From NCBI GenBank assembly GCA_040902765.1, contig JBBDWO010000028.1, forward strand, positions 43,946 through 107,945: a DNA stretch of 64,000 nt, written 5' to 3'. The number at the start of each line of letters is the position of its first letter. The first letter of the stretch is position 1. Both the position numbers and the translations under genes were made by a program. The DNA is from Acidimicrobiia bacterium (GTDB lineage Bacteria > Actinomycetota > Acidimicrobiia > Spongiisociales > UBA11373). Below, piece after piece: positions 9,017-58,812 of the stretch. The notes under the pieces are model-generated. The model saw only the letters and a list, made by a program, of their open reading frames with translations, made no database searches and was not told where the DNA came from.

Positions 9017-9568
9017 TCACGCCGCCAATAGGTCTGGTCCGGATTTGGTCCGCGAGAGATCAGAAAACACCCCCAGAGGACGCAAGTGGTTCATAGCGAA
9101 AACCCCAGTGATCATGGGGGAATGTCGCAAGACCACCCAGTTCTCAGGATCGCCGCAGCTGATTTGTAATGTTCGTTCAGCCTCCGGTGCCCTTGTGACG
9201 ACAAATCCGCTTGCGCCGAGAGGAGAGGCGGGAGCGGGTCGGCTCTCGGTACCATGTCGATTGAAGCGTCGAGAGCTGTGGCTTTCGAGGAACGTCACTA
9301 CGAGCGTGTGGAAGACGCTGGGCCGTAGCTCTCGGGCATGGATCACGGCGATGCCGGGGTGGGTTCCCGGCGAGTAGCGCCCGACGTCTGCGAGGCCTCG
9401 ATCGAGGGTCACGAGCATCCGGTCGTCGGAAGCGGCTAAGAGGGCCAGTCGGGCGTCGGGGACACCGACCAGGCTCTCCTCAGGCACCGTGCTCACATCG
9501 TGTCCGCGCTCCCGGAGCAGCTCGACAGCCCGGGTCGGGATGTTCTCGTCGGCTTTGAGCTTCACCAA
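9017..9568 (-). CDS. DUF5615 (PIN-like, Mut7-C) protein with anomalous C-terminal extension
   Basis: N-terminus (TTG start) VKLKADENIPTRAVELLRERGHDV matches the DUF5615 family from memory; the ORF runs about 75 aa past the usual domain end. Confidence 0.55.
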   Translation of the reverse strand: MVKLKADENIPTRAVELLRERGHDVSTVPEESLVGVPDARLALLAASDDRMLVTLDRGLADVGRYSPGTHPGIAVIHARELRPSVFHTLVVTFLESHSSRRFNRHGTESRPAPASPLGASGFVVTRAPEAERTLQISCGDPENWVVLRHSPMITGVFAMNHLRPLGVFSDLSRTKSGPDLLAA

Positions 9569-10154: not shown

Positions 10155-12794
10155 TTACCGTTCCACCTCGCCCACGAAGTTGCTGTACATGCCCATGCCG
10201 CAGTTGACCATGTACAGGACGGTGCCTTGTGGGTCCATCGCCATGGCGTAGGTGTAAAGGTGGGCTCGCCACGCCACCAGGCCCTTCGTGGCTAGCTCCC
10301 AGCTCTGACCACCATCGGGCGAGTGCCAGATACTCTCACTGTGCTCGGTGAAATAGACGTGCTCCGGCCGGGTGGGATCGATGATTAGATTCTCGATCCA
10401 GACGTCGCGGCGGAGGCGCCGCCAGCTTTCACCGCCGTCGTCGCTGCGGTACAGGCCGTCGGTCTCGTCCCAGTCGCCCCTCCCGTAGAACGACAAGGTG
10501 CCGGCGTAGACGACGTTCGGATCGGTCGGATGGGCAGCGACCACATACACGTACGGGTTGTCCAGAGGCGCGCTCGCCGCCCAGCTCAGACCGCCGTCGA
10601 CTGATCGGTACACGCCGTGGCCCATCACTGCGAGGTAGATGACGCGCGGATCGGCCGCGCTCAGCGAGATTGACGGGATCGGCGCGTCGGGAAGGCCGTC
10701 TACGTGTAGCCACGACGCTCCGCCATCCGTCGAGCGGTACAGACCGGTGCCGTGGTAGACGTAGTAAAATCTGCTGCTGCCGGTCCCCGCATACATGCGA
10801 TCCGGGTCATCCGGGTCAATGGCAAGGCTGATGATCTGCCGGTCGTCCATTCCGACGCTCGAGAGTTCCCAGCTCTGGCCAGCATCGGTCGACCGGTACA
10901 CACCGGTGAGGTTCGAAACGAAGACCGTGTCGGGCCTGTCCGGTCGGATGGCGATGTCCGTGATCTCATCCGGCGAGCCACCGACGCCGAGGCGCGTCAG
11001 CACGCTCCACGTATCCCCACCATCAGTCGTGCTGGATACATAGCCGTGACCGTGCCCTACGTACACGATCTCGGGGTCGCCGGGGTGAACCGCCACCGCC
11101 GTGGAGAGATCACCCACGAAATGCATGTGGGGCTGTGCCCAGGACCTACCCCCGTCGGTCGAGATGAGGATGCCCTCACCTCGCAGGCCGGCGTAGATCC
11201 GGTCCGGGTCCTCAGGGTCGATGGCCAGAGCATCCACCGAGCCAGGAAGGTCGCTGATTTCCTCCCAGTGGGCGCCGCCGTCGCGGGTACGCTGGATGCT
11301 GCCAAAGCTCGACGCGTACAGAACCAGCCGGTCGGCGGGTGACATGACCACGCCCTCCACCCCGTCTAGGATGGGTCCCCAGTTGCGCCCTCCGTCCGTG
11401 GTCTTGAAGAGCGGCCCGCCCCAGTAATGCTCGCGGGCGTACACGACCAGAGGGTCGACAGGGTCGACGATCAGCACCTTGATCAGCACGTCACCCAGGC
11501 CCCCGCTGGCCTCGGCCCAGGTCGCGCCGGCATCGTCACTGCGCCAGACACCCCCGGCACCGCCGGCGTACACGACGTGCGGCTGACTGGCAGCGATGCG
11601 CACCGCGAAGACCGAGCGATTGCCCAGGCTGAGCTGCTCCCAGGTGGCACCGTCATCGATGGTCAGGTAGACACCGTCCTCGGCGTTGGAGTGTTGCGGC
11701 GCCTCTGATGACCCGATGGCGACGTACGCGGTGTGCGAGTCCTGCGGGTGGACGGCGAAGGCGTTCACATGCCCGGACCCACCCGGCCGCATCGCCGACC
11801 AGTGCTCACCGCCGTCGCTGCTGCGCGAGCCACCTCCATCCTCGAGGTGGCCGAGATAGAGCACCCGACCATCAGAGGGAGCGATCTCGACCCAGGAGAC
11901 CTTGTTCTTGATGAGCCCACCGGCGTGACCGAGCTGCTCCCAGTTGACGCCCCGATCCCGCGAGACGTAGAGGCCGGAGTGGCCGGTCCCCGCGTAGACG
12001 TTGGACGGGTCGGTCGGATCCACCACGATCGTCGTGACCATCGCGCCCTCCGGCCCGTTGGTCCTGGTCCAGGTCTGCTCCGGGTGGAGCAGCGCCGTGA
12101 CCTCGACGTCGTCGAACAAGGCTTGTCCGCCTTCCGGTAGGTCCAGGCCGATCGAGCCCTCCAGGCGGGCGTCGGGGGCAGGGTCGCTGTGCTCTATCAG
12201 GGTCTGCCCGTCGACGGTCACGGTGAGCCGCGGCCCCTTTCCCGTCACCTCCAAGACGCGCCAGTCCGCCGACCGGGCTAGCGGCGCGCTGGCCAGCACC
12301 TCGGCAGAGCGTCCGTCGGGCGAAGCCTCGAGGCGCCGGAGCTGTAGCTGGTCGCCGGTGAGCGCCACCTCATAGGCGCGTACCTCGTGACCGTCAGCGT
12401 AACCAAACCAGTGGGCGCGATAGTGAATGCGAGCCTCACCGGCCAGGAGCAGCACACGGAGTCGCAGCGTGGAGTCTCGCCAGTAGTCGCCGAAGCGATA
12501 GCGGGCCCGCCCTGGTCCCCCGGCGGACAGGGAGTCGTTCTCCACCACGAAAGTGGAGGGCAGCACCCAATCGTCGGCCCAACCATCCTCGAAGTCCTCG
12601 AGGTAGTAATCCGGGTCGAGCGCCGCGGACCATGGACCCGACTCCGTCGGCTCGGGTTCGGCGGAACCCCGGGGCGGCGAACTGCTCGACGTCGGTGGCA
12701 GCGGATCCGACCCCGGCGTGTCCGGCGGCGGTGCCTCGACACAGGCAGCAGCGACCAAGCCGACCGTGACCAATACCCTCAGGGCGCACCGCAT
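10155..12794 (-). CDS. Secreted multi-BNR/Asp-box repeat protein with N-terminal LamG/DUF1080-like jelly-roll
   Basis: Lipobox-type signal MRCALRVLVTVGLVAAAC; at least 10 S-x-D-x-G-x-[ST]-W repeats (STDGGRSW, TDGGRNW, SDDAGATW and others); sortilin/Ycf48/GH74-like architecture. Confidence 0.75.
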   Translation of the reverse strand: MRCALRVLVTVGLVAAACVEAPPPDTPGSDPLPPTSSSSPPRGSAEPEPTESGPWSAALDPDYYLEDFEDGWADDWVLPSTFVVENDSLSAGGPGRARYRFGDYWRDSTLRLRVLLLAGEARIHYRAHWFGYADGHEVRAYEVALTGDQLQLRRLEASPDGRSAEVLASAPLARSADWRVLEVTGKGPRLTVTVDGQTLIEHSDPAPDARLEGSIGLDLPEGGQALFDDVEVTALLHPEQTWTRTNGPEGAMVTTIVVDPTDPSNVYAGTGHSGLYVSRDRGVNWEQLGHAGGLIKNKVSWVEIAPSDGRVLYLGHLEDGGGSRSSDGGEHWSAMRPGGSGHVNAFAVHPQDSHTAYVAIGSSEAPQHSNAEDGVYLTIDDGATWEQLSLGNRSVFAVRIAASQPHVVYAGGAGGVWRSDDAGATWAEASGGLGDVLIKVLIVDPVDPLVVYAREHYWGGPLFKTTDGGRNWGPILDGVEGVVMSPADRLVLYASSFGSIQRTRDGGAHWEEISDLPGSVDALAIDPEDPDRIYAGLRGEGILISTDGGRSWAQPHMHFVGDLSTAVAVHPGDPEIVYVGHGHGYVSSTTDGGDTWSVLTRLGVGGSPDEITDIAIRPDRPDTVFVSNLTGVYRSTDAGQSWELSSVGMDDRQIISLAIDPDDPDRMYAGTGSSRFYYVYHGTGLYRSTDGGASWLHVDGLPDAPIPSISLSAADPRVIYLAVMGHGVYRSVDGGLSWAASAPLDNPYVYVVAAHPTDPNVVYAGTLSFYGRGDWDETDGLYRSDDGGESWRRLRRDVWIENLIIDPTRPEHVYFTEHSESIWHSPDGGQSWELATKGLVAWRAHLYTYAMAMDPQGTVLYMVNCGMGMYSNFVGEVER

Positions 12795-38986: not shown

Positions 38987-39855
38987 GATCCGGATTCGTG
39001 CCGGTCGTGGGGAGGCCGAACGTCGGCAAGTCGACCCTCATCAACACCATCGTGGGCACCAAGGTGTCGATCACCTCGGATCGGCCGCAGACGACGCGAG
39101 CCGCCATCCGCGGCATCCTCGATCGAGAAGACCTGCAGATCGTGTTCGTCGACACGCCGGGCTTCCACCGTCCCCGGACCGCCCTCGGGTCCCGGCTCAA
39201 CAGCATCGTGACCGGGTCCCTGGCCGACGCCGACGCCGTGGTATTCGTCATCGACGGGACCGGTTCGGTGGGACCCGGCGATCGACTCATCGCAGAGCGA
39301 CTCCGGCACACGGGTACGCCGGTGGTGTGCGTGGTCAACAAGACCGATGCCGCCGGCCCCGCCAGGACCCTGGAGCGACTCGCCGAGGCGGCAGAGTGGG
39401 ACTTCGCCGCCTATGTGCCGGTGAGCGGGCTCACCGGTGAGCAGGTAGAGGCGGTCGTTGAGGAACTGGCTCAGCTGCTCCCCGAGGGGCCGCGCTACTT
39501 CCCGACGGGCATGCCCACCGACCAGCGCGACGAGTTCCTCATCTCCGAGGCCATCCGGGAGAAGTTCCTGTCGAGACTGCGTGACGAGCTTCCGCACTCT
39601 CTCGCCGTCGTGGTCGATGACCTGGAGCACCGTGATGACGGGTTGCTCGCGGTCTCCGCCAGGGTGGTGGTGGAGCGGGACAGTCAGAAGGGCATCGTCA
39701 TCGGCAAGGGTGCCGGGCTGCTCCGGGACGCCGGTACCGAGGCTCGGGTCGAGCTCGAGGCGAAGCTGGGACGCCCGGTTCACCTCGATCTGAAGGTGGT
39801 GGTCGAGAAGGACTGGCAGGAGCGCCCCGGGATCATCGAGCGCCTGGGCCTGTGA
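38983..39855 (+). CDS. era: GTPase Era
   Basis: GRPNVGKSTL G1 motif, DTPG G3 motif, C-terminal KH domain; GTGA overlap with the upstream gene. Confidence 0.85.
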   Translation: MRSGFVPVVGRPNVGKSTLINTIVGTKVSITSDRPQTTRAAIRGILDREDLQIVFVDTPGFHRPRTALGSRLNSIVTGSLADADAVVFVIDGTGSVGPGDRLIAERLRHTGTPVVCVVNKTDAAGPARTLERLAEAAEWDFAAYVPVSGLTGEQVEAVVEELAQLLPEGPRYFPTGMPTDQRDEFLISEAIREKFLSRLRDELPHSLAVVVDDLEHRDDGLLAVSARVVVERDSQKGIVIGKGAGLLRDAGTEARVELEAKLGRPVHLDLKVVVEKDWQERPGIIERLGL

Positions 39856-40637
39856 TGGGAGAGTTCTCCCGAGCGACCGCGATCACATCGAGCGGGGAGC
39901 GGTCTTTCGCCGCGGTGATTCCGCCCGGCTGGGACATCGTCGGCAGGGTCAATGGCGGCTACCTGATGGCGGTCGCGGCGCGCGCCTCTGCTGCGCTCAG
40001 CGGACGGCCGGCGCCGGTGACCATGACCGCCCACTTCCTCGCCCCTGCGGTTGCGGGTCCGGTGGCGGTGACCGCCGAGGTCCTGAAGGCGGGAAAGCGG
40101 TTCTCCACGGTTCGGGCCGCAGTCGCCGGGGATCGGACCATCCTCGAGGCGCTGGGGACGTTCGGAGACGGTGACGGGGTCTATGAAGGTTACGAGCGGA
40201 TCGACGGCGGGCCACCGGATCTGCCCGAGCCCGACGACTGCATCGAGGTTCTGCCCACGGAGACGTTCCCGCCGCCGTTCGTCGGACGAATCGAGATGCG
40301 TATCCATCCGGACAACGCCGCCTTCGGCGGTACGGGTCGGCCGCGGGTGTCGGGGTGGGTGCGGCTGCGGGACGGCGAGCCCATCGACGAGGTGGCGCTG
40401 CTGATGCTGGCGGACAGTTTCCCCCCGGCCGTCTTCTTCACCGACGCGTCGGTCGGATGGGTGCCGACGGTCGAACTCACCGTGCACGTGCGGCGGCGTC
40501 CGGTACGGGGATGGTTGCGCGGCGTCTTCACCAGTCACTTCATCACCGACGGGATGCTGGAGGAGGACGGCGAACTCTGGGACGAGAGCGGACGCCTGGT
40601 GGCACAGTCCCGCCAGTTGGCGCTGGTGCCGCGGTAG
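39852..40637 (+). CDS. Acyl-CoA thioesterase II-like (double hot-dog)
   Basis: Weak recalled similarity to the TesB-like thioesterase superfamily; the length and position are typical. Confidence 0.55.
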   Translation: MMGEFSRATAITSSGERSFAAVIPPGWDIVGRVNGGYLMAVAARASAALSGRPAPVTMTAHFLAPAVAGPVAVTAEVLKAGKRFSTVRAAVAGDRTILEALGTFGDGDGVYEGYERIDGGPPDLPEPDDCIEVLPTETFPPPFVGRIEMRIHPDNAAFGGTGRPRVSGWVRLRDGEPIDEVALLMLADSFPPAVFFTDASVGWVPTVELTVHVRRRPVRGWLRGVFTSHFITDGMLEEDGELWDESGRLVAQSRQLALVPR

Positions 40638-40645
40638 CGGTCCTA

Positions 40646-40738
40646 AGGGGGTGCGCGAATAGGTCGCTGGCTTCATCAGGTTTCGGCTTACCACAAGCCG
40701 AAACCTGATCCCGGGGCGAGCCTATTCGCGCACCCCCT
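40646..40738. repeat. 93-nt nested palindrome: outer 18-bp perfect stem (AGGGGGTGCGCGAATAGG / CCTATTCGCGCACCCCCT), inner 15-bp perfect stem (ATCAGGTTTCGGCTT / AAGCCGAAACCTGAT), 6-nt loop
   Basis: Read from the sequence; lies between the thioesterase stop and the dps start; no T-tract. Confidence 0.75.
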
Positions 40739-40831
40739 ACGCGGTGTTCGCGAAAGGAAGGGTCTTTGGTCGGTTCCGCCTAGGCCCGCTGGTGCCGTAG
40801 GTTGGTGGTGAGCGATCGAAAGGGTTACTCG

Positions 40832-41302
40832 ATGAGCATCCGTACCGAGGCGGGCAGAAAGGCCCGCGCCGGGATCGCAGCGGCGCTGTCGACGCTGCTG
40901 GCCGACAGCTACACGCTGTACCTGAAGACTCAGAACTATCACTGGAACGTCGAAGGACCGCAGTTTCACGCCCTGCACAACATGTTCGAGGAGCAGTACG
41001 TCGAGCTACGCGAGGCCGTCGACCGGATCGCCGAACGCATTCGGGCGCTGGGATTCCTCGCCCCCGGAAGCTTTGCGTCGTTTGCAGAGCTGACCAGCAT
41101 CGGCGAGGCGACCGACGGCATCACCCCGGCCGGGGACATGGTCCGAACCCTTGCCGAGGGTCATGAGACCCTGGCGGAGACCGCCCGGACGGCAGTCGAG
41201 GAAGCCGAGAAGGCCGTCGACGTGGCGACGGCCGATCTCGCCACCAATCGGGTCGAGATACACGAGAAGACGGCGTGGATGCTGCGGGCGATGAGCGCCT
41301 GA
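40832..41302 (+). CDS. dps: Dps (DNA-binding ferritin-like protein)
   Basis: LADSYTLYLKTQNYHWNVEGPQFHALHNMFEEQY ferroxidase-site region. Confidence 0.8.
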   Translation: MSIRTEAGRKARAGIAAALSTLLADSYTLYLKTQNYHWNVEGPQFHALHNMFEEQYVELREAVDRIAERIRALGFLAPGSFASFAELTSIGEATDGITPAGDMVRTLAEGHETLAETARTAVEEAEKAVDVATADLATNRVEIHEKTAWMLRAMSA

Positions 41303-41376
41303 GACCTGTCGGTCCGGACCGGCGCGTCAGGTGCGGGGGCTTGACCAGGTCAGTTCGGACCGGTCGCGGACGGGGG

Positions 41377-41667
41377 TCATGCGTCCGTCACCATGGCGTC
41401 GATGGTCGACGCGAGTCCGATGTCGCGGTCGGTGAGAGCCTTCGCCGAGTGCGTGGACAGGGTCAGGGTGACCCGGTTCCACCTGATGTCGATGTCCGGA
41501 TGATGGTCGGCCGCCTCGGCGGCGATGGCGACGCGCACGACGAAGCCGACGGCCTCGGCGAAGTCGTCGAAGGTCAGGGTTCGAGTCATCTCCTCGCCGC
41601 GCAGCTCCCAATCGGGATGGGTGTCGGTGAGCCGTGCCCTGCTGGCCTTGTCGAGTGGTGTTGCCAT
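41377..41667 (-). CDS. Pterin-4a-carbinolamine dehydratase
   Basis: Core [EDKH]-x3-H-[HN]-P (AADHHPDIDIRWNRVTL); 96 aa from the internal Met; the upstream ORF extension is spurious; hand-indexed start may be off by one (see summary). Confidence 0.75.
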   Translation of the reverse strand: MATPLDKASRARLTDTHPDWELRGEEMTRTLTFDDFAEAVGFVVRVAIAAEAADHHPDIDIRWNRVTLTLSTHSAKALTDRDIGLASTIDAMVTDA

Positions 41668-41756
41668 AGCCCGGCATTCTGGCCGATTCCCGGCCGAATG
41701 GCATCTCCGCACGACCGCGCTAGCGTGCGCGGGACCGAGACGAAGGAACTCTCCAC

Positions 41757-42167
41757 ATGCGCCGCCTGCTTGTCCTGTGTGCCGTATTGCTCGTCGCCGG
41801 GTGTGGCGGCTCAGGAGGGACGACGACCACGCAGGGCGCGACGGGCCCCCAATCCGTGACCGTGACGCTGGAGGACTACTTCTTCGCTCCAGAGTCGGTG
41901 ACGGTGACCGCCGGGGCCACGGTGAACGTGACCGGTGACAACCCATCCGGTACCGATCACACCTGGACGGTGCTCACCGCCGGGGACGAGGTGTCGACCG
42001 CGGTCGGGCTTCCCGAGGAGAGGATCCTGTTCCAGGTGTACGGGACGCCCGGATCGTCGGCCGTGGGTTCGTTCGTGGCACCCGAGCCAGGCATCTACCA
42101 GGTCATCTGCACGACCTCCGGCCACGTCGAGTTGGGGATGACCGGCACGCTCGTGGTGAGCGGCTAG
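41757..42167 (+). CDS. Cupredoxin-like lipoprotein
   Basis: Lipobox LLVAGCGG; C-terminal C-x5-H-x4-M (ICTTSGHVELGM) type-1 copper-like ligand spacing. Confidence 0.6.
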   Translation: MRRLLVLCAVLLVAGCGGSGGTTTTQGATGPQSVTVTLEDYFFAPESVTVTAGATVNVTGDNPSGTDHTWTVLTAGDEVSTAVGLPEERILFQVYGTPGSSAVGSFVAPEPGIYQVICTTSGHVELGMTGTLVVSG

Positions 42168-57521: not shown

Positions 57522-58732
57522 CGTTCCACCAGCTGGATGCGTCGGTTGTAGATGTTGAGGACAAACGAGATCGTCAGTGAGAAGGTGAGGTAGACCCCCA
57601 TGAGCACCAGGATCGACTGGGGCGCCGGGCGTCCATTCCCGATCGAGGTCTGGGTGAGCGCGGTGATCTCGGCGTAGGCGACGACGACGCCCAGCGACGT
57701 GTTCTTCACCAGGTTGAGGTACTGGCTGATGATCGGAGGCACGGCGATGCGCATCGCCTGAGGCAGGAGCACATAGCGGTACCGTTGGAACCCGGTGAGG
57801 GCGATGGCGTTGGCCGCCTCGGACTGGCCCTTGGGGACGGCGAGGATGCTGCCGCGCACGATCTCGGCGATGTGGCTCGCCGTGTACAGCCCGAGAGCGA
57901 CGGTGACCGAGATGAACCCGTTGTTGAGTCGGTAACCGCCGTCGATCCGTCGTCCCGATTCGGCCAGCGCCGGGTAGGACGCGTCGAAGGCGTCACCGAT
58001 GAGCAGTATCGCGGCCACGGTGACGAGGCCGAGTACCCCGAGGGACCACCGCATCCGACGATCGGGAGCACCGGTGCGTTCATGCAGTCTGGTTCTCCAC
58101 ACGAAGACCGCGACGGCCGCCGCAATGCCAAGAGCGATCACCAGCCAGAAGAGTCCCAGGCTGGGCCCAGCGACGAACGACGGCACCGCCCACAGCGTGT
58201 TCGACAGGATGAGGCCGTTGTTGTGGGTGCCGGGTATCTGGAATTGGTGCGCCTCCGACAGCACCGGTAACGGCCCGAAGGTGAAGACGGCGAATCCGAA
58301 GAAGATAATGATGATCAGGGGCGGGATATTGCGCAGCGTTTCGACGTAGACCGCCGCCAGACGCGCCACCAGCCAGTTGGAGGACAGTCGGGCGATGCCG
58401 ATGAGGACGCCGAGGACCGTGGCCAACAGGATCCCGAAGAAGCCGGCGAGCAGGGTGTTCTTGACGCCGACGAGCACCATGTCCCACACCGGACTCGATG
58501 GGTCGAAGCCGTCGTCGTAGGGGATCTGGAAGCGGGTGGGTCGACTCAGGAAACCGAAGTCGGTGCCGATGCGGAGGCGGTTGAGGTTGTTGACCAGGTT
58601 GTTGAACAGCCAGAAGAAGAGGCTGAACACCGCCACCACGAACAGCACCTGGGCGATGACGCGCAGCACCCGAACGTTGCGGTACCACGCGATGCGCGGC
58701 TCGTCGGTCGGTCGCTGTGCGGTCGTCGTCAC
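57518..58732 (-). CDS. Amino-acid ABC permease (AapQ-like)
   Basis: EAA-loop SEAANAIALTGFQRYRYVLLPQAMR; large periplasmic loop. Confidence 0.8.
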   Translation of the reverse strand: MTTTAQRPTDEPRIAWYRNVRVLRVIAQVLFVVAVFSLFFWLFNNLVNNLNRLRIGTDFGFLSRPTRFQIPYDDGFDPSSPVWDMVLVGVKNTLLAGFFGILLATVLGVLIGIARLSSNWLVARLAAVYVETLRNIPPLIIIIFFGFAVFTFGPLPVLSEAHQFQIPGTHNNGLILSNTLWAVPSFVAGPSLGLFWLVIALGIAAAVAVFVWRTRLHERTGAPDRRMRWSLGVLGLVTVAAILLIGDAFDASYPALAESGRRIDGGYRLNNGFISVTVALGLYTASHIAEIVRGSILAVPKGQSEAANAIALTGFQRYRYVLLPQAMRIAVPPIISQYLNLVKNTSLGVVVAYAEITALTQTSIGNGRPAPQSILVLMGVYLTFSLTISFVLNIYNRRIQLVER

Positions 58733-58812
58733 CCTCTGAGGAACTCCAGATATGGCAGACGGGCGGTCGGCGGATGCCGACCGCCCGTCTGCGCGTCGTC
58801 TCTACTACAGGG

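Follow-up and report, generated by a model that had tools for sequence, protein, structure and literature searches.

Results

A nested two-stem hairpin lies between the thioesterase gene and dps

The 64-kb window analysed here (64,000 nt of contig JBBDWO010000028.1 of an Acidimicrobiia bacterium, assembly GCA_040902765.1) carries, between an acyl-CoA thioesterase gene and a gene for a Dps/ferritin-like protein (dps), nested inverted repeats of 93 nt (40646-40738) in which two perfect stems lie one inside the other. The genes of the region are arranged in the order era (encoding a GTPase with a KH domain), thioesterase, the palindromic element, dps, a pterin-4a-carbinolamine dehydratase gene on the minus strand, a cupredoxin gene, recO and uppS; era and the thioesterase gene overlap by 4 nt (39852-39855). 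The palindrome, whose parts and neighbours are listed in Table 1, is very probably a MITE (miniature inverted-repeat transposable element).

The initial annotation of this DNA had correctly placed the hairpin between the two genes and had described an outer stem of 18 bp and an inner stem of 15 bp as perfect, and full complementarity of both pairs of arms bears this out. The apical loop, taken at that time for a hexaloop, has only five bases. The internal loop that was called short does exist, but it measures 11 nt on each side, with 4-5 bases per side paired, which lengthens the outer helix and leaves a conserved asymmetric loop: TCGC(T) of the left subterminal segment pairs with (G)GCGA on the right, and otherwise segments 40664-40674 and 40710-40720 are non-complementary. 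This asymmetry, read from the left subterminal segment, defines the orientation of a copy. The core of the element, GGGGG...CCCCC, spans 91 nt (40647-40737) and is bounded by 17-bp terminal inverted repeats (TIRs); the 18-nt outer arm of the initial annotation equals the left TIR plus the A at 40646. The 91-bp core holds no gene-sized open reading frame (ORF), and only spurious long ORFs cross it.

As RNA, the 93-mer is predicted to fold with an energy of -72.0 kcal/mol when read from the plus strand and -72.5 kcal/mol when read from the minus strand, and as single-stranded DNA with -45.7 kcal/mol; the corresponding z-scores against dinucleotide shuffles are -10.7, -10.2 and -12.1, and none of 200 shuffles folds as stably. 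The initial annotation had called the hairpin far more stable than ordinary intrinsic terminators; its stem is far longer than that of any normal terminator. The reported absence of a U tract likewise holds on either side of the hairpin, the sequence beyond it being ACGCGGTGTTCG on the plus and TAGGACCGCTAC on the minus strand, and a scan of both strands of 40300-41500 revealed no terminator-like site. The 64-kb window contains no second hairpin of comparable size. The suggested Rfam search matched no family over the element, even at E <= 10 in a permissive scan of 39500-42000; at the gathering threshold, the whole window yielded three tRNAs only.

Table 1. Coordinates of the hairpin, its surroundings in the window and the full copies of the family on other contigs (L numbers), with the trinucleotides flanking each copy. 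TSD, target-site duplication.
Feature	Contig	Coordinates	Strand	Remarks
Acyl-CoA thioesterase gene (4HBT_3 / 4HBT_3C)	Window	39852-40637	+	Stop codon 8 nt before the hairpin
Left TSD copy, TAA	Window	40644-40646		6 nt past the thioesterase stop TAG (40635-40637); flank pattern of the family
Outer arms, AGGGGGTGCGCGAATAGG / CCTATTCGCGCACCCCCT	Window	40646-40663 / 40721-40738		18 nt each, 100% complementary
Left TIR, GGGGGTGCGCGAATAGG, 17 bp	Window	40647-40663		Perfect complement of 40721-40737; the same arm bounds every family copy
Left subterminal segment, TCGCTGGCTTC, 11 nt	Window	40664-40674	+	Asymmetric internal loop; kept in all copies
Inner stem, left arm, ATCAGGTTTCGGCTT, 15 nt	Window	40675-40689		Perfect complement of the right arm
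Apical loop, ACCAC, 5 nt	Window	40690-40694	+	Family consensus GCCAC
Inner stem, right arm, AAGCCGAAACCTGAT, 15 nt	Window	40695-40709		100% complementary to the left arm
Right subterminal segment, CCCGGGGCGAG, 11 nt	Window	40710-40720	+	Opposite side of the internal loop
Right TIR, CCTATTCGCGCACCCCC, 17 bp	Window	40721-40737		Perfect complement of the left TIR
Right TSD copy, TAC	Window	40738-40740		One mismatch to TAA
18-nt stretch, ACGCGGTGTTCGCGAAAG	Window	40739-40756	+	Non-homologous to the 14 nt present here in the closest relative
dps upstream block	Window	40757-40805	+	Conserved in element-less relatives; alignment A1 columns 198-246; not part of the element
Dps/ferritin-like gene, 156 aa as in relatives	Window	40832-41302	+	ATG 93 nt past the element
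Full copy	Window	40646-40738		TAA/TAC, one mismatch
Full copy	L007	5602-5694		TGA/TGA (reverse complement of TCA, same reading strand)
Full copy	L008	108-200		TCA/TCA
Full copy	L009	5859-5951		TCA/TCA
Full copy	L012	6046-6138		One mismatch
Full copy	L013	2724-2816		TCA/TCA
Full copy	L016	1274-1366		TTA/TTA
Full copy	L018	4260-4352		No TNA duplication
Full copy	L018	8702-8793		No TNA duplication
Full copy	L018	10954-11046		TTA/TTA
Full copy	L020	548-640		Rearranged; no TNA duplication
Full copy	L022	2049-2141		TTA/TTA, allowing for its 1-nt-longer loop; same locus as L029
Full copy	L032	2714-2806		TTA/TTA

The hairpin belongs to a dispersed family of Acidimicrobiia

A search for the exact 18-mer arm in GTDB, represented by one genome per species, and in the JGI metagenomes gave eight genome loci and 24 metagenome loci. 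The Acidimicrobiia metagenome-assembled genome (MAG) SMAG_U14414 carries four full copies and one short form on five contigs, a second Acidimicrobiia MAG, binchicken_co31_379, has the arm on two contigs, and several metagenome contigs carry it as well; none of these hits came from the source genome, and the family is therefore present in at least three different genomes. Extraction and profile searching yielded 13 full or near-full copies, situated on unrelated contigs and in both orientations (Table 1), together with short or degenerate forms on L006, L010, L024, L026, L028 and L036. The full copies are ~93-99% identical to the window copy, and an alignment that includes two sister elements has a mean column identity of 91%. 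Within the 64-kb window the copy is single, since no other was recovered either with each arm at up to three mismatches or with two nhmmer profiles.

The two-stem architecture of the main family recurs in at least two sister subfamilies, with arms GAGCGCTCGCCAATAGG (L018) and GAGCGCGCGCAAATGGG (L020). The arms of the sister subfamilies begin with GAG, those of the main family with GGGGG, and the inner stems of the sister subfamilies differ in sequence yet are still complementary. A 9.3-kb metagenome contig (L017) starts and ends within copies (1-71 and 9191-9260), from which it follows that the repeat breaks short-read assemblies.

Several further matches were discarded. Arm-only matches on L021, L025, L034 and L037, on L019, L023 and L033, and on L014, L015, L027, L030 and L031 (low-GC DNA) belong to a few unrelated loci that show no likeness to the element beyond the arm and have no transposase nearby, and were treated as chance matches or solo ends, and two candidates for the ends of an insertion sequence (IS), L036 and L024, proved to be degenerate forms of the element of ~50 nt followed by ordinary genes. 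No arm match was found among viral contigs, and a BLASTN search of the element against 72,556 plasmids returned insignificant short matches only. A further exact 18-mer arm lies on a Terriglobia MAG (L011 7907-7924, same locus as L035), where it is followed by TCA and stands 25 nt past the arsC-like gene of an arsM-ACR3-arsC cluster; the rest of the element is missing there, and the arm could be explained by chance, as a solo end or by mis-binning of the contig.

Most copies are flanked by a TNA duplication, and one lies nested in a sister element

On either side of the 91-nt core stands one unit of a 3-bp direct repeat, TNA in form, which is perfect in eight of the 13 full copies (Table 1), at a chance probability of 1/64 for each; the short form on L010 is also flanked by TCA/TCA. 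Eight perfect three-base matches among 13 copies are decisive evidence of a target-site duplication. The middle base of the trinucleotide is the same on both sides rather than complementary, which marks the flanks as a direct duplication, not as the continuation of a longer palindrome. The alternative of a TA duplication, of the IS630/Tc1 type, was dismissed, as the repeated unit comprises all three bases T-N-A, the middle one included.

Nested, fused and eroded copies add to the signs of mobility. In L018 (10899-11074), the copy at 10954-11046 is nested within a sister-subfamily element that has a TCA/TCA duplication of its own. In L020 (548-755), a main-family copy adjoins a copy of the sister subfamily, whereas at the orthologous site of L016, from a different metagenome, there is a single hybrid element (1274-1366), which looks as if it had arisen by deletion between the homologous right halves of the neighbours seen in L020; palindromic TAAGAGCGCGCTCTTA precedes the elements in both contigs. 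A second pair of orthologous sites, one in a MAG (L010 5304-5331) and one in a metagenome (L024 188-211), holds different deletion forms, namely a 28-nt hairpin consisting of the outer stem only and the right arm alone, which share a ...TCA GAACTGGAG junction. The forms at both pairs of sites are of the kind that decay typically produces in old insertions.

Close relatives have an empty site

The same era-thioesterase-dps-...-recO order is found in relatives on L001/L002 (thioesterase 88% identical at the amino acid level) and L003/L004 (80%), where the thioesterase-dps spacer measures 95 nt and 84 nt, respectively, compared with 194 nt in the window. Alignment A1 places the 93-mer opposite a gap in the relatives, with the block just upstream of dps conserved in all of them, which identifies the element as an insertion relative to them. 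Nucleotide identity between the window and L001 is 95% up to 1 nt from the left edge of the element, and homology resumes 18 nt past its right edge, in the dps upstream block. This block is, judging by its conservation, a candidate promoter of dps; it contains a -10-like TAGGTT (40798-40803), and a sigma-70 consensus scan of the dps upstream region returned nothing. Since the insertion lies upstream of the conserved block, the control of dps is probably unchanged.

The initial annotation had held that a single-copy element absent from relatives with identical flanks would suggest a recent duplication-inversion or assembly artefact. As far as the window is concerned both observations are now made, yet many copies exist elsewhere, and absence from relatives with the same flanks cannot refute a mobile element, since that is exactly what a mobile insertion predicts.

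The 18-nt stretch between the element and the conserved block may have been left behind by an older insertion, or may be just a hypervariable spacer. It contains the arm-like GGTGTTCGCGAAAGG (40743-40757), whose resemblance to the arm lacks significance (227 of 2000 shuffles). Separately, the thioesterase-dps spacer of L003 (1211-1220) contains an exact 10-mer, CCGGGGCGAG, of the right internal loop of the element (19 of 2000 shuffles). Together these two sequences give a weak hint that the spacer is an insertion hot spot that was hit more than once and holds relics of such events.

The dps locus is itself variable among relatives: a 71% relative (L005 2033-2081) has no dps between the thioesterase and pterin dehydratase genes, and the 80% relative has a gene for a 408-aa Kelch/beta-propeller protein between dps and the dehydratase gene (L003 1784-3010).

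The symmetry of the palindrome is maintained

In an alignment of 14 sequences, 97.1% of the cells pair, and changes on both sides are seen in 12 of the 37 pairs, compared with 2.5 +/- 1.3 in column shuffles (none of 500 reaches 12) and two to four in slid registers. The main family shows five compensated changes, 17 single changes and not one uncompensated double change, against an expectation of 0.14 compensated changes under independent mutation (Poisson P ~ 4e-7). The five are T-A to C-G in L008, A-T to G-C in L012, C-G to A-T in the outer arm of L018a, and two in L022, with those of L008, L012 and L022 falling in the inner stem. Variation per site is 3.1% in the stems compared with 9.3% in the unpaired columns. 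The apical loop is inverted (GTGGC for GCCAC) in three of 12 copies (L008 108-200, L018 8702-8793 and L018 10954-11046), and in these copies the orientation of the internal loops is unchanged.

The palindromic symmetry is actively maintained. This could have its cause in the need for both ends to fit one transposase, in selection on the hairpin as RNA or DNA, or in template switching that copies one arm onto the other, which would also flip the loop. Quasipalindrome mutagenesis by template switching is a known process, and the combination of symmetry and flipped loops could reflect frequent self-correction of this kind, in which case the family would be a natural record of it.

Copies cluster at the 3' ends of genes

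Using ORFs filtered by G+C content at the third codon position as gene calls, we found at least 12 of 18 copies or partial forms within ~40 nt of the 3' end of a gene, including several located between convergent genes. The duplicated trinucleotide coincides with the stop codon at L008, L009, L013, L006, L022 and L036. TNA covers TGA and TAA as well as their complements TCA and TTA, so that an element inserting at a stop codon restores that codon and does not disrupt the ORF. The clustering could reflect target preference combined with purifying selection, or a benefit to the host. Relative to the nearest gene, the orientation of the copies is unbiased (five sense, three antisense).

Other hairpins in the window

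Two further repeat structures in the window deserve a record of their own. At 58755-58792 there is an unrelated perfect hairpin with a 17-bp stem (GCAGACGGGCGGTCGGC / GCCGACCGCCCGTCTGC) and the loop GGAT, located downstream of position 58732, the start point of two minus-strand ORFs, and not followed by a T tract. At 19860-19944, a run of four tandem GTAGCGA heptamers precedes a near-perfect hairpin of 17-19 bp made up of repeated CAACGCT / AGCGTTG units.

Discussion

A probable insertion of a MITE past the thioesterase stop codon

We consider it highly probable that the 93-nt palindrome is a MITE of a dispersed Acidimicrobiia family that inserted at a TNA trinucleotide 6 nt past the thioesterase stop codon. 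It has the features by which such elements are recognised, namely small size, no ORF, 17-bp TIRs, a target-site duplication of constant length, orthologous sites both filled and empty, and nesting; the presence of multiple copies within one genome is seen in SMAG_U14414, the source organism having been surveyed over the 64-kb window with its one copy. In the proposed mechanism, a DDE transposase supplied in trans would bind both arms and excise the element, and integration would proceed via a 3-bp staggered cut at 5'-TNA-3' that duplicates the trinucleotide (here TAA...TAC). The IS1031 group of the IS5 family prefers 5'-TNA-3' targets and generates an exclusively 3-bp direct repeat (PMC12016507). 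Because of the 3-bp TNA duplication, and on that evidence by itself, an IS1031-like DDE transposase is the most likely mobilising enzyme, and the family points to an active or recently active transposase of this type in these organisms. Transposases of the IS1031 group are of the DDE_Tnp_1 type and are often encoded by two ORFs with a frameshift, and the usual end of the group in the ISfinder tables is GAG, the trinucleotide with which the arms of the sister subfamilies start.

Several observations weigh against this interpretation. The target-site duplication is imperfect at the window copy itself, and three other copies (L018 4260, L018 8702 and L020 548) have none of the TNA form; the right junction is not clean, as 18 nt of the window are non-homologous to 14 nt of L001; and the source DNA examined holds one copy only. 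An autonomous IS bounded by these arms was looked for without success beside every arm match, a scan of the retrieved DNA for candidate units (length 600-2600 bp, inverted repeats of 13 bp or more, identical 3-bp flanks) gave none, no full-length element with a DDE transposase between the same ends was recovered in the retrieved contigs, and the cognate element is equally absent from the plasmid and viral-contig matches. Lastly, the arms have GGTGCG..AATA.G in common with real IS5 ends (GGAAGGTGCGAATAAG / GGAAGGTGCGAACAAG), a likeness that falls short of significance (443 of 5000 shuffles). A known autonomous partner is also lacking for many accepted MITE families, including Correia, and MAG assemblies tend to lose multi-copy IS.

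Other explanations of the hairpin

The initial annotation had left it between a REP/MITE-like element, an RNA element serving dps and a protein-binding site. The MITE half of the first suggestion is the one that has held up, on the strength of the dispersed family, the TIRs, the TNA duplications, the empty site and the nesting; membership of the repetitive extragenic palindromes (REPs) in the strict sense has not. A REP, or a bacterial interspersed mosaic element (BIME), moved by a REP-associated tyrosine transposase (RAYT) of the IS200/IS605-like Y1 type would also be an extragenic, multi-copy palindrome located mostly after stop codons. However, REPs are imperfect palindromes of 20-40 nt with a conserved GTAG-like tetranucleotide at the 5' side and without a target-site duplication, whereas the element described here is 91 nt long, has 17-bp TIRs that start with GGGGG and is flanked by 3-bp direct repeats; a non-exhaustive look revealed no RAYT gene beside any copy, and we regard this origin as very improbable. 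An operator bound by a locus-specific regulator of dps would suit a palindrome placed ~60 nt upstream of the conserved dps block, but relatives conserve this block without the element, other copies adjoin unrelated genes, and an operator has no need of two nested perfect stems (18 and 15 bp); we give it practically no credence, and the first two of these observations also speak against a dedicated RNA element for dps. Equally negligible is the possibility that the palindrome arose by local inverted duplication or by misassembly of the MAG contig, which would account for a single copy in the window and an empty site in relatives, and which is refuted by the occurrence of the same 93 nt in mid-contig, with different flanks, in independent assemblies of other projects.

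It is decidedly unlikely, in our view, that the hairpin is primarily a host-selected RNA element, be it a terminator without a U tract, a 3' stabiliser or an RNase III site, that benefits the thioesterase or dps transcript at this locus and the 3' ends of further genes at others, and that has spread because it is useful. Such a role would fit the clustering of copies near gene 3' ends, including those between convergent genes, the extreme stability on both strands and the preservation of stems that vary less than the unpaired columns and undergo compensated changes; Correia, ERIC and SPRITE MITEs are known to act in this way (PMC10969869). The element is, however, missing from close relatives in which the dps block is conserved, and so is dispensable at this locus. 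It has no U tract, which mycobacterial RNA polymerase needs for intrinsic termination, and no orientation bias with respect to the adjacent gene; furthermore, its position at 3' ends is explicable by TNA targeting of stop codons together with purifying selection elsewhere, and covariation of the ends is also expected if both bind the same transposase.

A role in RNA is nevertheless compatible with a MITE, to which it would be an added one. The era-thioesterase transcript would carry the -72 kcal/mol hairpin 8 nt past its stop codon, where it could plausibly block 3' exonucleases, impede read-through into dps or form an RNase III site. A stop-codon-seeking MITE might even have been recruited by Acidimicrobiia, as a high-GC lineage poor in canonical U-tract terminators, to provide 3'-end hairpins that work in either orientation, whether as terminator, insulator or mRNA stabiliser; we think this unlikely. 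Were it true, selection on the two-stem structure would explain the compensated changes and the threefold lower variability of the stems.

Implications

For annotation, the hairpin is to be labelled a repeat or mobile element and not a riboswitch, operator or terminator of dps. Acidimicrobiia are an abundant, poorly studied class of soil and aquatic bacteria, and a repeat that breaks assemblies (L017) and mediates deletions (L016 versus L020) matters for the quality of their MAGs. Presence or absence of individual copies could serve as a marker for strain typing. With its perfect nested palindromes, compensated changes and loop inversions, the family also constitutes a natural dataset for the study of palindrome maintenance. 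It leaves the understanding of how MITEs work unchanged.

Comparison with known elements

The family is previously undescribed, while the kind of element, a MITE, is well known; we found no MITE of this type in Acidimicrobiia or actinobacteria in the literature searched. With intrinsic terminators the element shares a G+C-rich hairpin directly after a stop codon, but it differs in lacking a U tract on either strand, in its far longer stem and in being mobile and multi-copy. Like REP/BIME sequences it is an extragenic palindrome past stop codons; unlike them it has TIRs, a 3-bp target-site duplication and a length of 91 nt, has no GTAG motif and is not a member of that class. The 3-bp TNA duplication, the perfect TIRs of ~17 bp and the absence of an ORF are the same as in MITEs of the IS5/IS1031 group, from which the family is set apart by main-family arms beginning with GGGGG, an insignificant similarity to IS5 ends and the lack of a cognate transposase among the sequences found.

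The Correia elements (NEMIS) of Neisseria are MITEs of ~100-150 bp whose long inverted repeats likewise fold the transcript into a single long hairpin, and which are also intergenic, often located at gene ends and without a known resident transposase. Their target duplication is TA, their repeats measure 26 bp, they carry an IHF site and promoter elements, and they are unrelated to this family in sequence and in host phylum. Transcripts containing Correia elements are cut by RNase III at the TIRs, and small dispersed repeats can alter mRNA stability or termination (PMC10969869). The fate of Correia transcripts offers a model of how the hairpin may act on the thioesterase mRNA. ERIC, RUP, BOX and SPRITE elements are similarly small, non-coding hairpin repeats that are intergenic and nest in one another, as the copies on L018 and L020 do; their sequences, sizes and target-site duplications are different, and the Acidimicrobiia family is distinguished from them by its two nested stems and conserved asymmetric internal loop.

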